Positions 13,209-24,707 of a stretch of DNA of 33,293 nucleotides are shown in pieces. Source of the stretch: Candidatus Bipolaricaulota bacterium (GTDB lineage: Bacteria; Bipolaricaulota; Bipolaricaulia; RBG-16-55-9); the NCBI GenBank assembly GCA_026982655.1, contig JALSGO010000077.1, forward strand, positions 1 to 33,293, given 5' to 3'. The notes below the pieces were generated by a model, which did no database searches, was not told the origin of the DNA, and saw only the letters and a list, made by a program, of their open reading frames with translations. How positions within the stretch are numbered: the first letter of the stretch is position 1; every line of letters starts with the position of its first letter. Made by a program: the position numbers and the translations under genes.

Positions 13209-14354
13209 ATGGACTTTCGCTTAAGCGAGGAGCACGAGCTGTTCCGCCGCACCGCGAGGGACTTCGCCCAGAAGGAGCTGGAGCCCCGCGCAAAAGAGTT
13301 CGAGGAGCAGCACGCCGTCCCCCCCGAGATCCTCCGGCAGCTGGGGGAATTGGGCTACCTGGGGCTGATGGTCCCGGAGGAGTACGGCGGAGTGGGGGCC
13401 GACACCCTCAGCTACACGATCGTGATGGAGGAGCTCTCTCGCGCGTGCGCCTCCACCTCCACGGTGGTGAGCGTCCAAAACTCGCTGGTGGAGTTCCCCA
13501 TCGCCGAGTTCGGAACCCCAGAGCAAAAGCGCAAATACCTTCCGAAGCTCGCGACGGGGGAGTGGATCGGGGCCTTCGGGCTCACGGAGCCCGAATCGGG
13601 CTCGGACGCCGCGGGGATGAAGACCACCGCCGTCCGCGACGGGGATTTCTACGTTCTGAACGGTACGAAGCGCTTCATCACCAACGCGGCCTTCGCTCAA
13701 GTGTTCGTGGTCTTCGCGTTGACGGACCCCGAGGCGGGGAACAAGGGGGTGAGCTGCTTTCTCGTGGAGCGAGGCACGCCCGGGTTCACCGTGGGCGAAG
13801 AGGAAGACAAGATGGGGATCCGCGCCACCTCCACCTGCGAGCTCTTCTTCGAGGACTGCCGCGTGCCCTCTGAGAACTTGTTGGGCGAGGAGAACCGGGG
13901 CTTCAAGGTGGCGATGCTCACCCTGGACGCGGGCCGGATCGGGATCGCCGCGCAGGCCGTCGGCATCGCGCAGGCCGCGCTCGACGAGGCCTTAAAGTAC
14001 GCCCAGGAGCGTGTGGCCTTCGGGAAGCCCCTGGCGGCCTTTCAGGCCATTCAGTTCAAGCTCGCAGAGATGAAAACGAAGGTGGAGGCCGCGCGGCTCC
14101 TCACCTACCAGGCCGCCTGGAAGAAGGACGCGGGCGAGGACTACATCCTCGAGTCGTCGCTGGCCAAGCTCTACGCGGCGGAGATCGCCAGTGAGGTGGC
14201 CGACGCGGCGGTCCAAATCCACGGCGGCTACGGGTACATCCGCGACTACAAAGTTGAGAGGCTGTACCGAGACGCGCGGATCACCCGCATCTACGAGGGG
14301 ACGAGCGAGATCCAGAAGCTGATCATCGCCCGCCAGCTCCTCGGGCGGGGCTGA
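13209..14354 (+). CDS. acyl-CoA dehydrogenase (short-chain/butyryl-CoA DH-like)
   Basis: The product is 381 aa. It has the ACAD motifs [14 protein letters not shown] and [44 protein letters not shown] precedes the ATG 20 nt after the atpA stop. Confidence 0.9.
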
Positions 14355-14370
14355 CGTTGCTCGATCGAAT

Positions 14371-14565
14371 TTAAGGCGATTGCCTGGACCCGCCCGTGAG
14401 GTTCTCCAGGGGATAGAGCGGGGCGAGCCGGCGGATCTTCTCGAGAATGGCCTGCCGTTCCCTCTCGCTCGTCGCCTGCGCGTACTTCTCCTTGAGCTTT
14501 TGGATCTTCTGCCGCCGCTTCTGCCACTTCCGCAGCAAGAACCGCTCTCGCTTCGGCTTGGGCAT
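14371..14565 (-). CDS. hypothetical small basic protein (about 64 aa), tentative
   Basis: The product reads MPKPKRERFLLRKWQKRRQKIQKLKEKYAQATSERERQAILEKIRRL. Its K/R/E-rich composition is coherent, whereas the overlapping plus-strand ORF looks like an antisense artefact. It lies 40 nt downstream of the beta-CASP gene on the same strand. The Shine-Dalgarno sequence is weak. Confidence 0.3.
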   Translation of the reverse strand: MPKPKRERFLLRKWQKRRQKIQKLKEKYAQATSERERQAILEKIRRLAPLYPLENLTGGSRQSP

Positions 14566-14605
14566 AGCAAGAGTGTACTTACCGAATCTTGGATTTCTCT
14601 GCAAC

Positions 14606-16183
14606 CTACAGCTTGAGAGAAACCCCTTCCCGGGGGAGAACGACTTGAACGGGGCTGTCGGCAAGCTTTTCCTGAAACCATTGGGGGTGCTCGGTGTGGA
14701 GGGGCACGACGACCTTGGGCTCTACGGCGAGGACAAAGCGCAGAAGCTCGGGACCGGCAGCGTGGCCGCTGGCATGCACTTGAAGGGGCCGGTGACCGTT
14801 GTGGGAGTTGATGTCGAAGCGGGCGAGCCATCGAATCAAGCGCTCCTGAGACAATTCCATCTCCTCGTTGAACGGCTCGGTCATGGCCCGGACGTAGCGG
14901 GACCCCTCGGGGGGCTGTATGTCCAAGAGGTTGTTGAAGCGCCAGTAGTCGAGCTGGAGCACGTAGCGCTCGGGCTCCCGGCGCAGGTCCAGGGCAGTAA
15001 GCCCCTTCTCGAGATGGGTGAGGTCCGGGCCTTCTTCCTTGGTCCATTGCGCTTTGTACCCGGCTTTGTACTTGTAGTGGACGTAATCTGCCGGGCTGTA
15101 GAGTAGGTAGTGGCTACGCTCCAAGAAGACGTGGACGCAGGGGTCGGCCTCCGGAGCGTGCGGGTGCTCTAAGTGATGCAGCAGGTAGGCGAGCCGAGGG
15201 AAGACGACGAGCTCGCGTCCGGCGGCCAAGGCCGCCTCGCGGACGGTCTCGAAGCGCTCGACGTCCTTCCAGGCGAACCCAACCATTGCAAGTCCTCGGG
15301 TCTCCCGAAATGCTTGAGTTAGTTCCTCGCAGACGCGGGCCTCGTCGTCGCGTTCCTCTTCAGCGACCCGGGTCCCCTCGATGAGGAGCACGTCGGGCTC
15401 GAGGCCCTCTAGATGCCGAAGGGGGTCGATGGGCCAGCGCCCGTGGAAGCGGATATCTCCCGTATAAAGGACCGTCCTCCCTTGGGATCGGAGGACGAAG
15501 GCCGTCGCGCCGGGGACGGAGTGGCTCACAGCCACGGGCCAGACGGTGATCTCGGGGCTCTCGGGGAGGGGAAAGGGCCGATGGGGCTCTACGGTGTGGA
15601 GGGTGCGGGGTTCCTCTTGACCGCTGACGATCTTGGGAGCTCCCGGGGCGAAGCCCTGCTTGCTACACTGCAGGACGCGGCGCTTGAGGCGGACGGCGTC
15701 GCGCTCAAAGCCGCTGTAGTTCCCCACCTCCATGGCAATCTCCATGAGGGTGCGGGTGGGGGCGGAAGCGTAGATGGGCACGTGCCCTAAGAAGCCGACG
15801 AGCCCGACGTGGTCGTCGTGGGCGTGGCTAAGGAGGACGACGTCTACGGGAGGCTTCCCGTGGCGCTCGATGTGCTCCTCGGCACAGGGGAGATCGCACT
15901 CCCAGAGGGGGGCGCTGCGCCCCAGGAGCTTGGGATCGCCGAGGGGTGCGAAGGCATCCCGGCGGTAGAGTCCGGGGATGCGGGGTAAGATCCCCAGCTG
16001 GAGGTAGTCGTGGAGCTGGGCGTTGGTGCGGGGGGCTAGGTACTCCTCGTAGTAGAGGGCCTTGCGCTTGTAGGAGATGCCGAAATCCAGCAAGACTTTG
16101 CCCACGGGGAACTCGACGAGGACCTTATTGCCCCCGATCTCGTTGACGCCACCGTGGAGGGTGATCCTTATGCCCTTAGTCAT
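14606..16183 (-). CDS. RNase J-like metallo-beta-lactamase / beta-CASP family nuclease
   Basis: The product is 525 aa. The N-terminus IRITLHGGVNEIGGNKVLVEF is MBL motif 1. LSHAHDDHVG is the HxHxDH motif. The C-terminal HASGHAAGPELLRFV...VVPLHTE is the beta-CASP motif C seen in RNase J. The start lies 2 nt after the SbcC-like stop. Confidence 0.75.
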   Translation of the reverse strand: MTKGIRITLHGGVNEIGGNKVLVEFPVGKVLLDFGISYKRKALYYEEYLAPRTNAQLHDYLQLGILPRIPGLYRRDAFAPLGDPKLLGRSAPLWECDLPCAEEHIERHGKPPVDVVLLSHAHDDHVGLVGFLGHVPIYASAPTRTLMEIAMEVGNYSGFERDAVRLKRRVLQCSKQGFAPGAPKIVSGQEEPRTLHTVEPHRPFPLPESPEITVWPVAVSHSVPGATAFVLRSQGRTVLYTGDIRFHGRWPIDPLRHLEGLEPDVLLIEGTRVAEEERDDEARVCEELTQAFRETRGLAMVGFAWKDVERFETVREAALAAGRELVVFPRLAYLLHHLEHPHAPEADPCVHVFLERSHYLLYSPADYVHYKYKAGYKAQWTKEEGPDLTHLEKGLTALDLRREPERYVLQLDYWRFNNLLDIQPPEGSRYVRAMTEPFNEEMELSQERLIRWLARFDINSHNGHRPLQVHASGHAAGPELLRFVLAVEPKVVVPLHTEHPQWFQEKLADSPVQVVLPREGVSLKL

Positions 16184-19049
16184 TGCGTTGCTTACAAAAC
16201 CTCACTTGATGAATTCTCTCTTTGAGTCTCGGGACCTGCTCGAAAAGCCACCGATGGCGTACCTCATGGCACGAGAAGACGATAACTTGACGATCTCGAG
16301 CGAGATGCTCGGCTAAGAGCTTCATCCCCTTGAGGAAGCGCTCGTCGTGGCTGTGGGGAAAGGGCTCGTCGAGGACCAACGGAAGGGTCAGTTTGCCTTG
16401 TGCCAGGAAGTCAGCGATTGCAGCACGGACGATAAAATACAGTTGCTCAACCGTTCCACCGCTGAGCCTGGGAGGGGAACGATCTTGGGAAGCGTGGAGC
16501 TTCTGCTTTGTCTCAGGGTGGATAAACGTTAAGCGTAGGTCCTTCTCGAAGCGAGGCTTCCCGTAATGGGGGAGGATCTCTTGGAAAGCCCTTGTGGCAA
16601 ACCCGTTCAGATGCTCAGCCCAAATCTCGTAGACCTCAGTCGAGATGTGTCGTAACGTATCTTTGGCAATTGCTACTGCGCTTTCTACTTTCTCCGCTCT
16701 CTTCAAGCTTTGCTTCCGATCTCTAAGCTCTTGGTAGAGCTCAGGCAAAGAGCGAGTCTCTTGCAAGGTTGAACGGATCTCTTCCTCCAAACAAGAGACT
16801 TTCTCCCGCATCTCTTCGATATCGTTTGTTATTTGATCCAGCTGTCGTTGGTAGAAGATTCGATCTGCGTCAGGATCAGGGCAAACCGTTCCTTCAGGCC
16901 AGTCCGATTGCATTTGTGCAATTTGCTGCTTTAGCTCTTCTATTCGCTCCTTTAGGCGGTTCCTCTCCTCAGGAGGGAGAAGGAGCTCGCGCTCTCGCTC
17001 GATCTCCTGCACCAGCTGGCGAAAGCGCTGGACTTTCTTGACAGCCTGGTCAAACGCGGTTCGTGCGTCCTCGCCTCGGAGGCTGCTGTCCAATCCGGAC
17101 TCTTGTAAAAGCTCCTCGACCGCTTGATTCTGCATTTGCAGCTGTTTTTCCTTCTGGATGATATCTCCTTCCCGTTCCGAGATCTTCCGGCGGAGCTCCT
17201 CCTGCCGGGAGCGCAGAGAAAGGGCTAGATTTGCATTCTCAAGGATCTCTCCAAGAGAAGCGGAGGAAACCTTATCGAGCTGTAGGGCAACCCCTCTGTG
17301 CTCGCACCAGCGATAGGCTTCTTCGCGCAGTTGGCGTAGTTCGTCTTGAACGCCTTCCCACTGTGCCAGGAGCCTCTGAAGCTCTACTGTTTCCTGTTGA
17401 AGAGCTTGCCACTCCGCGAAGCTTGTGAGGAGATCCTCCTCGGAGCCAGTTTCTAGCTCACGAGCCAAAAACCTTAACCGCCGGTCCCTCTCCTGCTCGT
17501 CCTGTTCTAGCCGGTTGAGGTCTTCCTGCGCTCGCTGAAGATCCAGCTTGATGTTCTCATAGTCTCGATCGTATTTGGATTTGCCCCTTTGGTGTAGAAC
17601 CGCCCCCCCAAGGGCCATCAGTGCACCTATCCCGGTCAAGATCCCTCCAGCCGTCACGTTTCCCCAAGCTGTAAGCGCAAGTCCGGCCCCTAGGGCTACC
17701 AACCCACTGAGCCCTGCGAGGCGCGTTATCCGCCTCCAGTGGGCCCTTTTGCTCTCGATCTCTTGGAGGGATTCTTCCGCTCTGTCCCTTCGAAGGGCGA
17801 TGTTCTCCCTTTGTTGCGCTCCCTGTGCTCGGGCATGAGAGGCTTCATAGAGGAAGCGACGATCCTCGGGGGATAATCTTTCAAAGAGTTCCTGCAACTC
17901 CTCCAGCCTGTGTTCATCAAACCCTTCCGCTGCCAGGCGCGCCCGCTCCTTGTCCATCCGATTGCACAGCTCCCGATCTGAGCGCTCTGCCTCTTCCAGT
18001 CTCTTGATCAGTCCGAGCAGATCGTCCCTTTCGTGTTGGGTGCAGTGGGCCAACTCCCTCAGCTGTTCGAGGCTCTGTTCACAAGCTTCCAGTCTCCTGC
18101 GTTCTTCCTCTAACTTTCTCTTGAGCTGGGTGATCTCCGTTGAAAGCCTGTCAATTTCATCAAGCCAGCGATATAAGTTCCTTTGCTGAGCGTCGGGGAA
18201 CTCCGCATAATCCGCGAGACGCTCTTGCTCTTCCTCAAGCTGCCGGATTCGCTCCCGTCTTTGGCTATCCTGTTGGAGCTGGTTCTCCACTTCTTGAAGC
18301 TCCGTTTGATATAGCAGATACGTTGTGGTGGTTTGCTGGCATCGTCGCTCGTTAAGTTCCACGTGCAGGCGAGACAGTTGATCTTCTTTGTCCTCGATGC
18401 GGTTACGTCTCTGTTCCAACTTTTGAATCTCGGCGGTTAACTCAGCGATTCGCTGCTTAAGACGTTTCTTCTCTGTGCTCAGCTTCAGCTTCTTCCCCAT
18501 CTTGCGAAGGGGATAGTCATTCTCAATCTGCTCTAGGGCATCAAGGGCTTCAGCAACGGTGCGTTCACCTCCTTGGGCATCCGCCACGCGTTGCAGGACA
18601 CGAGTTAGGCCTTCCGGGTCTTGGATTGCCATCTTCCCCTGCTCGACGAAGACGCTCTTTTGGAACTCCTCGCGTGAGAGGTCCAGCAATTCTTCGCCTA
18701 TGGGGATCATCTTGTTCTTCGAGGCAAGGAACCGATCCGTGATGTCGTGACCATCCTCCCAGATGCGAACGCGTCCGTGTCTGAAGTTCCGCTCAATGAT
18801 CACCCTTTTACCTTGTAGCTCTAGCTCTAGTGCTAGGGAGAAGGCTCCATCGTTCAAAGGCTGCCAGCTCCATAGTGGATCGGTTGGCTTCGGTTTGCGA
18901 GGCCCGTAGAGCCCCTCGAGGATGGAGGCTGCGAGCGTGGACTTCCCCTCTTCGTTGGGGGCAATCCAGAGGTTGAGCCCTTCCGGCTGAAACTCGATGT
19001 GGCCGGACAAACAACCGAAATCCCTTAGCTCAATCCGCCGAATTCTCAT
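16176..19049 (-). CDS. YhaN/SbcC/Rad50-like SMC-family ABC ATPase with a central double-transmembrane hairpin
   Basis: The product is 957 aa. The N-terminal P-loop LWIAPNEEGKSTLAASIL is of the AAA_27/YhaN type (NE[AE]GKST). A very long coiled coil follows. The C-terminus has the signature RLSGGTVEQL, the Walker B LVLDEPF and an H-loop SCHE. No CxxC zinc hook is present. Instead, residues about 444-485 (LAGLSGLVALGAGLALTAWGNVTAGGILTGIGALMALGGAVL) form two hydrophobic helices. Confidence 0.8.
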   Translation of the reverse strand: MRIRRIELRDFGCLSGHIEFQPEGLNLWIAPNEEGKSTLAASILEGLYGPRKPKPTDPLWSWQPLNDGAFSLALELELQGKRVIIERNFRHGRVRIWEDGHDITDRFLASKNKMIPIGEELLDLSREEFQKSVFVEQGKMAIQDPEGLTRVLQRVADAQGGERTVAEALDALEQIENDYPLRKMGKKLKLSTEKKRLKQRIAELTAEIQKLEQRRNRIEDKEDQLSRLHVELNERRCQQTTTTYLLYQTELQEVENQLQQDSQRRERIRQLEEEQERLADYAEFPDAQQRNLYRWLDEIDRLSTEITQLKRKLEEERRRLEACEQSLEQLRELAHCTQHERDDLLGLIKRLEEAERSDRELCNRMDKERARLAAEGFDEHRLEELQELFERLSPEDRRFLYEASHARAQGAQQRENIALRRDRAEESLQEIESKRAHWRRITRLAGLSGLVALGAGLALTAWGNVTAGGILTGIGALMALGGAVLHQRGKSKYDRDYENIKLDLQRAQEDLNRLEQDEQERDRRLRFLARELETGSEEDLLTSFAEWQALQQETVELQRLLAQWEGVQDELRQLREEAYRWCEHRGVALQLDKVSSASLGEILENANLALSLRSRQEELRRKISEREGDIIQKEKQLQMQNQAVEELLQESGLDSSLRGEDARTAFDQAVKKVQRFRQLVQEIERERELLLPPEERNRLKERIEELKQQIAQMQSDWPEGTVCPDPDADRIFYQRQLDQITNDIEEMREKVSCLEEEIRSTLQETRSLPELYQELRDRKQSLKRAEKVESAVAIAKDTLRHISTEVYEIWAEHLNGFATRAFQEILPHYGKPRFEKDLRLTFIHPETKQKLHASQDRSPPRLSGGTVEQLYFIVRAAIADFLAQGKLTLPLVLDEPFPHSHDERFLKGMKLLAEHLARDRQVIVFSCHEVRHRWLFEQVPRLKERIHQVRFCKQRND

Positions 19050-20292
19050 TGTCGTCCTCTTCGTCCTCAGCTGCTAGGAACCCTGTTTCCCTGACGAACA
19101 CCTTTCCGAGGGTCAGCGCATCCAGCCCCATGTAAAGAGCTTCTTTGAGGATGGCTCGCTTCTCGGGATCGCTCTCCTCATCCATTTGGTGGAGGAGCTC
19201 GCGCGCGAAGCGAGCCTCCACGGTGTGGCTCTTGCTGTGACGGTAAGCCTCTAAGTCATAGTCCGGCTCGGCTTGGTTCACGACGTGCACGTGCCAAAAA
19301 CGCTCTTCTAAATCTTGGGGGACGTTAGGCATAACGCCATGCGGATGTCGGCCTGTTAGCTCCACGCAGAGCACATCATCCTGAACGGGCTGGGGTCCCA
19401 CTTCCCTCTCGATTGTGGTATGGATCCTCTCGTGCATCGCTTCTTGATGGTCTGTCCCCGTTAAATCCACTGGAACGATCCAAATCCGCCTTGGGTCAAG
19501 AGAAATTGGCTCTATGTCTGGAGAAACGCCGTCGTGCGTGATCTCTAAGATTAAGACGCCTTTCTTTTCGGTTTCCCGACGGTTTCGGGCTACTAAGCAC
19601 CCGGAATAGGCAGCTCGAACACGCCCTTGATCGTCTTGAATCGTCTGAAAGGCGTGGTAATGTCCCAGTGCCGCGTAGGAGAAGCCTTGGCACAATAGCT
19701 CTGCGTCCTCAAAAGGCGCTGTGATGAGCGGCTTCCCTCCGGGATGGAATCCCCCAAGACGCGAGCCATGGAAGAGCAGAATTTGGATCTCAGCGTCTTC
19801 GGGACGCGAGATCTTCTGCTGTAGGAGCCGCTCTTCTAAGGGCACGTTTTCGCGGAACGCCCGCCCTGTGATTGTGACCTCCGGTCGATTCGGCAGCCGA
19901 ACCGTCTCGAACTCGCCGGATGTGAATACGTAAACGTTTGGAGGCCAAGGAGACAGCCCGTGACGGGCCCAGAAATCCGGGGTATAGCCACACCGTGAGG
20001 AGTAGAAATCGTGGTTGCCAGGAGCTATATACGCCGGGATGTCGTGTTCATAAAGCTTGCGAAATTGAGCCCCGAGCCAGCCTACGGTATCGGGGGTGAG
20101 TCTTTCGTCTTCCCACAAGTCTCCAGGGATAAGTACTACGTCCACCGAGCGCTCGATGGCAAGGTCTATAGCTTTTTCAAAAGCCTTCCGGATGTCTTGA
20201 AGGCGAGCCTGCTGAGTTTGAACATCAGGGAACAGGGCTGCGGAGACTGCGCCATCGAGGTGCACATCAGAGATTTGCAAGGCTTTTAGCAT
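19030..20292 (-). CDS. YhaO/SbcD/Mre11-like calcineurin-type phosphoesterase (nuclease)
   Basis: The product is 420 aa. The metallophosphatase motifs are ISDVHLD, GDLWED, GNHD, FHGS and GHYH. It overlaps the downstream ATPase gene by 20 nt. Confidence 0.8.
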   Translation of the reverse strand: MLKALQISDVHLDGAVSAALFPDVQTQQARLQDIRKAFEKAIDLAIERSVDVVLIPGDLWEDERLTPDTVGWLGAQFRKLYEHDIPAYIAPGNHDFYSSRCGYTPDFWARHGLSPWPPNVYVFTSGEFETVRLPNRPEVTITGRAFRENVPLEERLLQQKISRPEDAEIQILLFHGSRLGGFHPGGKPLITAPFEDAELLCQGFSYAALGHYHAFQTIQDDQGRVRAAYSGCLVARNRRETEKKGVLILEITHDGVSPDIEPISLDPRRIWIVPVDLTGTDHQEAMHERIHTTIEREVGPQPVQDDVLCVELTGRHPHGVMPNVPQDLEERFWHVHVVNQAEPDYDLEAYRHSKSHTVEARFARELLHQMDEESDPEKRAILKEALYMGLDALTLGKVFVRETGFLAAEDEEDDNENSAD

Positions 20293-20408
20293 ACGTACAG
20301 CCCCTTTCTCGGATTTTCATGGCTCACCCGCGCACTCTTCCTAGCAGAGGATAACCCTCTGTGTCAAGAGTGGGAAGTGCGCCCGCGGTCCATCTGAGCT
20401 ATCATACG

Positions 20409-21119
20409 ATGATTATGAGCATTACGGAGCGTGTCCATCTCGCTCGGGAAAGGATCGCCCGCGCTGCCGAGCGCGCCGGGCGCTCTCCCCAAGACGTGCG
20501 CATCTTGGCGGCCACCAAGGGCCGCTCTGTTGCTGAGATCCTTGAAGCCCTCAAAGCGGGCATCGACCTCATCGGGGAGAACACCGTACAAGAAGCGCTC
20601 GGCAAGTTCGAGTTCCTCCCCCAAGAGCTGGAGAAGCACATGATCGGGACCCTCCAGCTCAACAAGGTCAAGGCCGCCGTAAAGCTCTTTCACGCTATAC
20701 AGTCCGTGGACTCGTGGGAGCTGGCCCGGGCCCTCGACCGCGAACTTTCCCGTATAGAGAGGGAGGAACCGTATTCCATCTTCCTAGAGGTGAACCCCGC
20801 AGGCGAGGAGACCAAGCGGGGCCTCCCTCCCGATCAAGTAGAGCCCCTGATCGAGCAAATCCAGGACCTCCAGAACGTGCGCGTCGTGGGGCTCATGGCG
20901 ATGATGCCCTATCAAGACCCCGAGACGCTTCGGCCTCACTTCCGCGCCATGCGGGAACTCTTCGAGCACCTACACCAACAGGCCCGGCAGAAGGGCTGGG
21001 CCCGGGTCGAGATGCGGTGGCTCTCGATGGGGATGTCCCACGACTTCGAGGTGGCCGTCGAGGAGGGCGCGAATCTGGTACGATTGGGGACGGTCCTCTT
21101 CGGACCCCGGGAGGCGTAA
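20409..21119 (+). CDS. yggS: YggS/PLPHP-family pyridoxal-phosphate homeostasis protein
   Basis: The N-terminus reads MIMSITERVHLARERIARAAERAGRSPQDVRILAATKGRS...LIGENTVQEA, the alanine-racemase-N-like fold with the conserved K. I chose ATG 20409 (or 20415) over the upstream GTG at 20361. Confidence 0.8.
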   Translation: MIMSITERVHLARERIARAAERAGRSPQDVRILAATKGRSVAEILEALKAGIDLIGENTVQEALGKFEFLPQELEKHMIGTLQLNKVKAAVKLFHAIQSVDSWELARALDRELSRIEREEPYSIFLEVNPAGEETKRGLPPDQVEPLIEQIQDLQNVRVVGLMAMMPYQDPETLRPHFRAMRELFEHLHQQARQKGWARVEMRWLSMGMSHDFEVAVEEGANLVRLGTVLFGPREA

Positions 21120-23369: not shown

Positions 23370-24707
23370 TTACGCGTTCTCCTCCTTCGACGCCTCCCGC
23401 AGCCTCCTCCGCAGCTCCTCCCACCGCTCGAGGCGCCTGCGGATCTCCCGCTCGAAGCCCCGCTCCGTCGGGCGATAATATACGCGATCCCTCAAGGATT
23501 CGGGCATCGAGTTCATGGGGGTAACCCCCTCCTCGTAGTCGTGGGCGTACTCGTACCCCCGCCCGTAGCCCAGCTCCTTCATGAGCTTCGTGACGGCGTT
23601 GCGGATGTGAAGGGGGACGGGCTCCCGGCGCGTCTCCTCCACGTCGCGGCGGGCCTCTCCGAAGGCCTTGTACACGGCGTTGCTCTTGGGGGCCGTGGCC
23701 AAATACACCGTCGCTTCGGCCAGCGCCAGCTCCCCTTCGGGGCTGCCCAGGAAGTCGTAAGCGTCTTTCGCCGCCAGCGCGATTTGCAGGGCTTGGGGGT
23801 CGGCCAACCCCACGTCTTCTACGGCCATCCGCACCAGTCGTCTCGCGAGGTAGAGGGGATCTTCCCCGGCGGCGAGCATCCGGGCGAGCCAGTAGAGCGC
23901 GGCGTCGGGCTCGGAGTTGCGCACCGCCTTGTGCAGCGCCGAGATCAAGTTGAAGTGCTCCTCCCCCGCCTTGTCGTAGAGCGGCGTCTTGCGCTGCAGC
24001 GCGTTCCGGACGTCTTCTGCGGAGATCGTGGAGCCCCCGCAGAGGTCCGCGGCCAGCTCCAGGAGGTTTAAGGCCCGGCGGGCATCCCCGCCGCACGCGT
24101 CCGCGATGAACGCCTCCGCTTCCTCGGTGAGCGCGAGTCGGCGCTTCCCCAGTCCGCGCTCCTCGTCCGCCAGCGCCCGGCGCACGATCGTGCGGATCTC
24201 CTCGGGCGCGAGGGGCTGGAGCACGAAGACCTGCGAGCGGGAGAGCAGCGCGGCGATGACCTCGAACGAGGGGTTCTCCGTCGTGGCTCCTACCAGAATT
24301 ACGGAGCCCTCCTCCACGTAGGGCAGGAAGACGGCCTGCTGGGCCTTGTTGAAGCGATGGATCTCGTCGACGAAGAGGAGGTCGCGGGTTCCGTAGGATT
24401 GAAATCGAGAACGGGAGCGCTCCATCGCCCGCTGGACGTCTTTGATGGAGGCGCGCACGGCGCTGAAGGGGACGAACTCGGCCTCGTAGTGCCGGGCGAT
24501 GATCCGGCCCAGGGTGGTCTTGCCCGTCCCGGGCGGACCCCACAGGATCAGGGAGCGCACCCGGCCCTCCTCGATCATCCGCCGCAGGGGCTTTCCTTCC
24601 CCGACGAGGTGCTCTTGCCCCACGAACTCCTCTAGGGAGCGGGGCCGCATCCGCTCGGCCAGCGGGGCCTTCGGCTTCTCTTGACGGAACAGCTTCGTTT
24701 GGTCCAC
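23370..24707 (-). CDS. rarA: replication-associated recombination protein A (AAA+ ATPase RarA/MgsA)
   Basis: The product is 445 aa. The Walker A motif is LILWGPPGTGKTTLGRIIA and the Walker B is LLFVDEIHRFNKAQQ. The C-terminal region is MgsA-like. Confidence 0.9.
   Translation of the reverse strand: MDQTKLFRQEKPKAPLAERMRPRSLEEFVGQEHLVGEGKPLRRMIEEGRVRSLILWGPPGTGKTTLGRIIARHYEAEFVPFSAVRASIKDVQRAMERSRSRFQSYGTRDLLFVDEIHRFNKAQQAVFLPYVEEGSVILVGATTENPSFEVIAALLSRSQVFVLQPLAPEEIRTIVRRALADEERGLGKRRLALTEEAEAFIADACGGDARRALNLLELAADLCGGSTISAEDVRNALQRKTPLYDKAGEEHFNLISALHKAVRNSEPDAALYWLARMLAAGEDPLYLARRLVRMAVEDVGLADPQALQIALAAKDAYDFLGSPEGELALAEATVYLATAPKSNAVYKAFGEARRDVEETRREPVPLHIRNAVTKLMKELGYGRGYEYAHDYEEGVTPMNSMPESLRDRVYYRPTERGFEREIRRRLERWEELRRRLREASKEENA

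Follow-up and report, generated by a model that had tools for sequence, protein, structure and literature searches.

We analysed a 33,293-nucleotide (nt) stretch of DNA (contig JALSGO010000077.1, termed the window), whose host is probably a member of the Bipolaricaulota. Its central feature is a minus-strand operon encoding a Mre11-like phosphoesterase, a Rad50-like ATPase and an RNase J-like nuclease of the metallo-β-lactamase (MBL)/β-CASP type. We conclude with high confidence that the first two genes encode a DNA-end-processing complex of the SbcF/SbcE (YhaO/YhaN) type. As for the entire locus, we give about even weight to the reading that such a Mre11-Rad50-like complex is combined here with a translationally coupled accessory nuclease that was gained in this lineage. 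The gene pair is of a known though neglected kind; its linkage to a β-CASP gene, and a related operon in Chloroflexota, are new to the literature that we searched.

An earlier note on this DNA, made from the sequence alone, had described a tightly coupled operon of four genes, with a 20-nt overlap at the first junction and 2 nt between the ATPase stop codon and the nuclease start codon. For the three long open reading frames (ORFs; Table 1) tight coupling is confirmed. The Mre11-like and ATPase genes indeed overlap by 20 nt, the ATG of the ATPase gene lying inside the upstream gene. The second junction, however, is not a gap but an 8-nt overlap between the end of the ATPase gene and the start of the β-CASP gene (window 16183-16176, sequence ATGACTAA). 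The three genes are thus joined through overlapping stop and start codons. Moreover, the Mre11-like gene has a ribosome-binding site, GAAAGGGG, 8-9 nt 5' of its ATG, and no minus-strand terminator-like sites were found inside the operon.

Pfam searches, which the earlier note had proposed as a check, find the families it had named in all three proteins. The first, a Mre11-like phosphoesterase as predicted, matches Metallophos (47.7 bits). Its top PDB sequence matches are Mre11 and SbcD, and the top Foldseek matches of its AlphaFold2 (AF2) model (predicted local distance difference test, pLDDT, 93) are all Mre11/SbcD structures, with target-normalised TM-scores (TMt) of 0.6-0.72. It shows the calcineurin-like motifs I-V and the Mre11 fold with capping domain that characterize Mre11/SbcD nucleases, and the residues D9-x-H11, G57-D58, G92-N93-H94-D95, H175 and G210-H211-x-H213 are invariant across 43 homologs. 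The Mn site of the phosphoesterase is thus intact. Since it remains below the NCBIfam equivalog cutoffs for Mre11 and SbcD despite these motifs and this fold, it represents a distinct subfamily.

The second protein matches AAA_27 (PF13514) with 29.1 bits at a cutoff of 22, and also AAA_23 and AAA_15. When its family profile is compared to the PDB, Rad50 head domains are the only matches apart from a weak similarity to ClyA-family toxins. An alignment of its relatives (A1) shows that Walker A (GKST), Q-loop, LSGGT signature, Walker B (LVLDEP) and H-loop (CHE) have all been retained. The protein has the features of the SbcE/YhaN family (COG4717, AAA_27), namely an ABC head with matching C-terminal signature, Walker B and H-loop, a hydrophobic central domain without CxxC, and an adjacent SbcD-like gene; a homolog with 47% identity carries the JGI name YhaN. 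All of this agrees with the initial assignment of the first two genes to yhaO-yhaN (sbcF-sbcE). In Bacillus subtilis, SbcE/YhaN has a unique hydrophobic and insoluble central domain that lacks CxxC, its gene sits between yhaO (sbcF) and yhaM, and SbcE and SbcF function in double-strand-break repair and competence (PMC2811018).

The central hydrophobic domain of the window ATPase had been described as a transmembrane hairpin. It consists of paired hydrophobic segments (residues 444-462 and 467-485; Kyte-Doolittle peaks of 1.68 and 1.81) that are flanked by the basic stretches RRITR and HQRGKSK and lie at the apex of the coiled coil, which is the position of the zinc hook in Rad50. The CxxC zinc hook of Rad50/SbcC is absent, and Pfam gives no Rad50_zn_hook match. 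The hairpin is kept in all nine close relatives (9/9). Of 127 full-length YhaN/SbcE family representatives among the top matches, 125 show hydrophobic segments in the centre, placed at 0.47 of the protein length, and a central CxxC occurs in none of the 127. Because it is found in 125/127 representatives, the hairpin is a trait of the whole family and not a speciality of this locus. The family is very large, as an exhaustive HMMER search retrieves 3,499 representatives of 50%-identity clusters at E<=1e-30 and 14,283 at E<=1e-10. A conserved central proline has been reported for Gram-positive SbcE. The alignment of relatives contains no invariant one and the turn of the window protein, WGNVTAGG, has none, and this feature may be restricted to Firmicutes. 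Finally, the weak similarity of the family profile to the hydrophobic heads of ClyA-family pore-forming toxins (MakA, Nhe/Hbl L1; E~4e-3) concerns residues ~451-525 of the ATPase (window 17475-17699). This match is probably compositional, though it is compatible with a membrane-inserting helical hairpin.

We then surveyed gene neighbourhoods of ATPase relatives, of which 19 came from a word-indexed search and a further 80 loci from a metagenome scan. In nearly all of the about 80 metagenomic loci a Mre11-like gene lies directly 5' of the ATPase gene. The two genes thus form a conserved unit. What follows them varies. Among more distant YhaN-type loci, MutS is encoded downstream of the pair in three (L009 10891-13551, L112 9988-12690 and L116 449-3106) and DprA in two (L126 2053-3105 and L134 1300-2403), in each case 4-139 nt 3' of the ATPase gene. 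In L005, a locus from a low-GC genome whose ATPase (39% identity) is the next closest after those of the two loci described below, the third slot holds a 590-amino acid (aa) protein with a C-terminal RNase_H_2 domain (PF13482). This gene (L005 4659-6431) starts 145 nt downstream of the pair, so that a different putative nuclease occupies the slot taken by the β-CASP gene in the window. The MutS, DprA and RNase H-fold neighbours tie the pair to DNA metabolism and favour a role in DNA-end processing. Other genes found 3' of YhaN-type pairs encode PGI, isocitrate/isopropylmalate dehydrogenase, a TonB-type receptor and an FHA protein. A universal rule by which YhaN-type pairs are followed by a third nuclease is not supported, as the downstream genes vary.

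The third protein is an RNase J-like β-CASP enzyme, as had been proposed: Pfam (Lactamase_B_2, Lactamase_B and RMMBL) and Foldseek agree. Its AF2 model (pLDDT 93) is most similar to the uncharacterised protein EF2904 (2az4), followed by bacterial and archaeal RNase J. Identity to the solved RNase J structures is 13-19%, at a TMt of 0.56-0.77. The model is shorter than the bacterial enzymes and fits shorter structures better, the TMt being 0.56-0.60 against RNase J of ~550 aa. A counterpart of the C-terminal dimerisation domain of bacterial RNase J is not evident in this comparison, although no direct check for it was made. For the archaeal RNase J (aRNase J) structures 5HAA/5HAB, phmmer returns no match at E<=0.01, and the likeness is one of fold only, with 13-16% identity. 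The RNase J-type HxHxDH site of the MBL domain, the β-CASP motifs A-C and the HxSGHA pocket are all present, and none of the residues HxHxDH (H120-H125), H221, D243, E269, H390, HASGHA (H470-A475) and H496 varies among 55 homologs. In RNase J, the HxSGHA motif binds the 5'-phosphate. The enzyme thus has an RNase J fold with an intact di-metal site. The alignment shows no clade-specific insertion, a possible docking element, in those β-CASP proteins that are linked to Mre11/Rad50 genes.

The earlier note had conceded that its proposal would suffer if this gene were the canonical rnj of the organism. This candidate is rejected, as the protein scores 58.1 bits against the RNase J model TIGR00649 (cutoff 400) and 49.5 bits against RnjA (cutoff 820), well short of what NCBIfam requires for the RNase J and aRNase J families, besides its low identity to solved RNase J structures. 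Published work on RNase J-family enzymes makes a role in DNA metabolism plausible: members of the family cleave single-stranded DNA in vitro (PMC7864078), and in Haloferax aRNase J forms complexes with RecJ3/4, where the loss of RecJ3 or RecJ4 leads to poor recovery from DNA damage (PMC10470531).

Evidence that the β-CASP enzyme works together with the pair comes from two sides. The first is the conservation of the junctions. In L003 and L004, the loci with the two closest ATPases (56% and 47% identity), the order Mre11-like/ATPase/β-CASP is kept, with a 4-nt overlap at the junction of the last two. The stop/start overlaps have therefore been retained in three genomes even though their ATPases share only 47-56% identity.

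The second is an association of the same β-CASP family with Mre11/Rad50 genes in another phylum. This family comprises more than 4,000 clusters at 90% identity, with matches in 476 GTDB species, mainly of the Bathyarchaeia, Thermoplasmatota and Chloroflexota, and the nearest named relatives of the window gene belong to Candidatus Bipolaricaulia. In all 11 Chloroflexota/Dehalococcoidia loci retrieved (L020-L023, L025-L027, L029 and L031-L033) a gene for a zinc-hook Rad50/SbcC protein of 713 or ~855 aa lies immediately 3' of the β-CASP gene. A Mre11-like gene is found upstream in 8/11, and in at least four of the 11 a gene for a Cas4-like PD-(D/E)XK nuclease (254-282 aa) lies immediately 5' of the β-CASP gene. 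Neighbouring genes in these operons overlap or are separated by gaps of 4-12 nt. Their flanks differ from locus to locus, and β-CASP identity within the clade goes down to 53%; to the window protein it is 40-44%. In a neighbour-joining tree the β-CASP proteins of the three triad genomes are nested in an otherwise unlinked Bipolaricaulia-type clade, and the Chloroflexota clade is separate from it, with archaeal clades in between. Since the tree separates the two clades, and both the ATPase types and the gene orders differ, linkage to Mre11/Rad50-type pairs must have arisen at least twice. The literature searched contains no description of a Chloroflexota Mre11-Cas4-like-β-CASP-Rad50 operon. The presence of β-CASP relatives in classical Mre11-Rad50 operons of another phylum suggests that they are an undescribed partner in DNA-end processing. 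As a separate observation, in an outgroup locus from Altiarchaeales the Mre11-Rad50 genes are encoded ~450 nt from the β-CASP gene, on the opposite strand.

Because translational coupling is conserved and the Chloroflexota association arose independently, an accessory nuclease functionally coupled to the pair is the most likely reading of the β-CASP enzyme, and we give it about even weight. Several findings weigh against it. The survey of neighbourhoods for co-occurrence of the three genes, suggested in the earlier note, recovered the triad in the two relatives, but at none of about 80 other (metagenomic) YhaN-type loci is there a β-CASP gene. The exact triad is thus restricted to the window and two relatives, and there the flanks are equally conserved: YggS is found next to the triad in L003 and L004 and acyl-CoA dehydrogenase in L004, the flanking proteins being 63-91% identical to those of the window. 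Since these unrelated flanks are as well conserved as the triad, its gene order may reflect plain inheritance. The closest β-CASP relatives outside the triad clade (52-70% identity) are not linked to Mre11/Rad50 genes; one (63% identity, L012) has ABC-transporter, SnoaL and URO-D genes as neighbours and another (67%, L173) has small ORFs and the toxin-antitoxin genes BrnT/BrnA next to it. Moreover, the window enzyme contains an RMMBL domain, and its motif C has the "RNA-type" His.

Base composition also separates the genes. The GC content dips across the operon region, which the earlier note had read as an atypical composition of the whole module. This holds for the Mre11-like and ATPase genes, whose GC content at third codon positions (GC3) is 0.60 and 0.61, but not for the β-CASP gene, whose GC3 of 0.82 is host-like (flanking genes, 0.78-0.91). 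The same split recurs in L003 and L004, so that in three genomes the pair is at ~0.6 and the β-CASP gene and the neighbours are at 0.72-0.91, and it persists though the ATPases have diverged. Candidate causes are an ancient transfer, in which the pair arrived next to an existing β-CASP gene in the common ancestor and was not ameliorated, or selection that keeps its codons at low bias, perhaps for low expression. Since the β-CASP gene is host-like and the pair is not, in all three genomes, the three genes may lack a shared history, which is a further point against a functional unit.

These observations can be combined into the alternative that the genes are neighbours by descent, in which a repair unit landed beside an RNase J-like housekeeping ribonuclease of the lineage and the products work separately. 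The split in GC3 would fit an arrival of the pair next to a gene that was already there, and a β-CASP identity of 76-78% among the triad genomes, in the range of the flanks, is what a housekeeping rate of evolution would give. The solitary sister genes, the RMMBL domain with the His-type motif C, the JGI label "ribonuclease J" on family members and the lack of β-CASP genes at the other YhaN-type loci fit it as well. It does not account for overlaps kept in three genomes while the ATPases diverged, nor for the position of the protein far under the RNase J and aRNase J thresholds. Above all, the same β-CASP family occurs inside Mre11-Rad50 operons across Chloroflexota, where the flanks are not conserved, and that such an association should arise twice by chance is very unlikely. 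We consider this, the main alternative, rather unlikely, while taking it seriously.

If the β-CASP enzyme is indeed an accessory nuclease of an SbcF/SbcE-type complex, the parts may cooperate as follows. The ATPase dimer would clamp DNA ends in an ATP-dependent manner, as Rad50/SbcC does, and the apex hairpin could insert into the membrane or self-associate and in this way tether the complex, which would fit the polar foci that SbcE forms in B. subtilis. Blocked ends would be nicked or trimmed by the Mre11-like subunit. The β-CASP enzyme might then degrade the 5'-phosphorylated strand in the 5'->3' direction, or strip RNA from RNA:DNA hybrids at breaks. This would provide RecA with a 3' tail, a task that falls to NurA beside archaeal Mre11-Rad50. 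Extending this to the family, we tentatively propose, with somewhat more doubt than belief, that the β-CASP clade (~520 aa) consists of prokaryotic nucleases for DNA-end processing and not of ribonucleases. It would have been recruited independently at least two times, by a pair of the membrane-hairpin SbcEF type in a Bipolaricaulota lineage and, throughout Chloroflexota, by one of the zinc-hook type that comes with a Cas4-like nuclease. There it would provide 5'->3' resection or end-cleaning like NurA and SNM1/Artemis, and it may also degrade foreign DNA.

A second alternative is an anti-plasmid or anti-phage module, in which a Rad50-like clamp at the membrane would sense linear or free ends of foreign DNA, leaving that DNA to be degraded by the two nucleases. 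The low GC3 of the pair hints at a horizontal origin, and some relatives of the β-CASP gene have defence genes as neighbours. One (70% identity; L177 1-3519) lies directly 3' of BREX BrxL (PADLOC, 874 bits), another (56%; L176 962-4767) 3' of a type IIG restriction-modification gene, and Chloroflexota operons adjoin EcoO109I and a GmrSD-HNH gene. The first two cases hint that part of the β-CASP family is placed in defence islands. Distant plasmid homologs point the same way: two full-length ones with 29-30% identity reside on megaplasmids of Thermus thermophilus (pHC11, L178 6977-8566) and Rhodothermus marinus (pRMAR01, L179 6977-8566), among genes for AbiEi/AbiEii, DUF262, Avs2, VapC/Phd and a restriction-modification S subunit. 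These adjacencies, however, are anecdotal and come without a comparison to the background rate. PADLOC v2, to which the earlier note had pointed, yields only partial matches of the ATPase to LmuB, AriA and JetC (of Lamassu, PARIS and Wadjet, respectively), which are weak and generic for SMC-like proteins. It gives no match for the Mre11-like, β-CASP and small-ORF proteins, and no system's full core is present. We have therefore not adopted any known defence system. A scan of viral sequences gives one weak match for the ATPase (L172) and none for the β-CASP protein, and the plasmid search gives C-terminal fragments but no real match for the ATPase, and distant homologs (24-32% identity) for the β-CASP protein. 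Given this near absence from viral and plasmid collections, a phage or plasmid origin is rejected. In addition, the window locus lies amid housekeeping genes in a position conserved in three genomes, and elsewhere pairs adjoin MutS or DprA on large chromosomal contigs. A defence module is thus improbable.

Least probable by far is a factor for DNA uptake or transformation, in which a membrane-tethered complex handles incoming DNA and the β-CASP enzyme degrades one strand, comparable to the MBL domain of ComEC: a hydrophobic apex suggestive of a membrane location and DprA genes directly 3' of the distant pairs L126 and L134 are in line with it, but this DprA linkage is limited to the two loci, the window contains no competence genes and we know of no competence in this uncultured lineage. 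The model for such a role is B. subtilis, where SbcE/SbcF are found at the competence pole and transformation is mildly impaired in the mutant (PMC2811018).

The fourth gene of the operon as first described is a highly basic ORF that is most likely 64 aa long (ATG 14565, stop 14371, minus strand), and matches DUF6800 (36.6 bits); gene calling on the source contig likewise gives 64 aa. It begins 40 nt past the β-CASP stop codon, has no clear Shine-Dalgarno sequence and is possibly co-transcribed with the operon. It is absent from L003, L004 and every other locus examined. Since it is missing in both relatives that have the triad, a conserved four-gene unit is rejected. In place of the small ORF, L003 and L004 have a gene pair for DUF5647/DUF7718 on the opposite strand.

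The sole promoter-like match between 14000 and 20700 is a sigma-70-like candidate upstream of the operon whose match level is not above the shuffle expectation. Rfam finds no structured RNA or riboswitch in the window, which matches a section of a 61.7-kb metagenome contig in ENA without differences. The operon is set among housekeeping genes (a V-ATPase operon, acyl-CoA dehydrogenase, YggS, a rhomboid-like gene and RarA), its immediate neighbours being YggS and acyl-CoA dehydrogenase. The RarA/MgsA-type gene, named from its Pfam domains (AAA and MgsA_C), lies ~3 kb upstream on the strand of the operon (window 23370-24707, minus strand). Between it and the operon are an unannotated ORF of 316 aa and the genes for YggS and DUF1751 in divergent orientation.

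Table 1. Position of the operon genes and associated elements in the window, and examples of the Chloroflexota operon (positions within the respective loci).
Feature	Coordinates	Strand	Basis
Mre11/SbcD-fold Mn-phosphoesterase, YhaO/SbcF type, 420 aa (predicted)	19030..20292	-	Pfam, PDB matches, AF2/Foldseek, motifs
Rad50-like ABC ATPase, YhaN/SbcE type, 957 aa	16176..19049	-	Pfam AAA_27, ATPase motifs
Central hydrophobic hairpin of the ATPase, residues 444-485	17595..17720	-	Kyte-Doolittle peaks, family conservation
RNase J-like MBL/β-CASP nuclease, 525 aa (predicted)	14606..16183	-	Pfam, AF2/Foldseek, invariant motifs
Small basic ORF, 64 aa, DUF6800	14371..14565	-	Pfam, gene call on source contig
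Candidate sigma-70-like promoter of the operon (weak evidence)	20409..20437	-	sole promoter-like match in 14000-20700
Chloroflexota Mre11-(Cas4-like)-β-CASP-Rad50 operon, examples	L022 8689-14173; L021 4902-10721

It is poorly understood how bacteria without RecBCD/AddAB-type or RecJ-based resection process DNA ends, and how SbcCD and SbcEF hand ends over to RecA. If our reading is true, the β-CASP enzyme is a testable candidate for the missing 5'-strand nuclease and a bacterial counterpart of NurA and of the eukaryotic β-CASP repair nucleases. Moreover, the SbcE/YhaN family, in which a hairpin replaces the zinc hook nearly throughout, represents a design that has been almost unstudied since 2009; for SbcEF/COG4717 we found nothing relevant beyond the SbcE paper of that year. 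In the literature searched there is also no description of this architecture, or of a β-CASP enzyme in Mre11/Rad50/SbcCD operons, which is in line with the earlier note, whose author knew of no such system.

The closest described locus is that of B. subtilis SbcF-SbcE (YhaO-YhaN) followed by YhaM, with which the window shares the order of phosphoesterase, ~960-aa SMC/Rad50-like ATPase and nuclease gene. Its ATPase shares with SbcE the AAA_27 N-terminus, the lack of a CxxC hook, the hydrophobic central domain and the SbcD-like partner, a likeness judged from the published description and from Pfam. The two loci differ in that the central proline is not conserved here, in that the host is probably a member of the Bipolaricaulota and not of the Firmicutes, and in the third gene, which encodes an RNase J-fold β-CASP enzyme here and there YhaM, a 3'-5' exoribonuclease of the HD/OB type. 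With Rad50-Mre11 and SbcC-SbcD the pair has in common the ABC head motifs, long antiparallel coiled coils, a Mre11 fold with Mn site and adjacent, overlapping genes. It is distinguished from them by a hydrophobic hairpin in place of the zinc hook, by a nuclease gene that comes first and by scores far below the NCBIfam cutoffs for Rad50, SbcD and Mre11.

The β-CASP enzyme shares with RNase J and aRNase J the MBL and β-CASP fold, HxHxDH, motifs A-C and HxSGHA, whereas its genomic context is DNA repair and not RNA metabolism, and its closest structure is EF2904 (2az4). The eukaryotic enzymes SNM1, Artemis and Apollo are β-CASP enzymes that process DNA ends in the 5'->3' direction and have a 5'-phosphate-binding pocket. 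The similarity to them is only distant (Apollo, E~2e-3), with no evidence of orthology, and motif C is His here, while it is reportedly Val in Artemis/SNM1 enzymes. With the archaeal Mre11-Rad50-HerA-NurA system the locus would share, judged from its context only, the logic of a Mre11/Rad50-type pair beside which a second, dedicated nuclease is encoded that could resect the 5' strand. HerA and NurA genes are absent from the cluster, which consists of the three genes and the DUF6800 ORF, and the nuclease has an MBL/β-CASP fold, unlike NurA with its RNase H-like fold. Finally, the Chloroflexota operons combine the same β-CASP family with Mre11-like and Rad50-like genes in tight coupling, but there the Rad50/SbcC protein has a canonical zinc hook, the β-CASP gene lies between those for Mre11 and Rad50, and an extra PD-(D/E)XK nuclease is often encoded as well.

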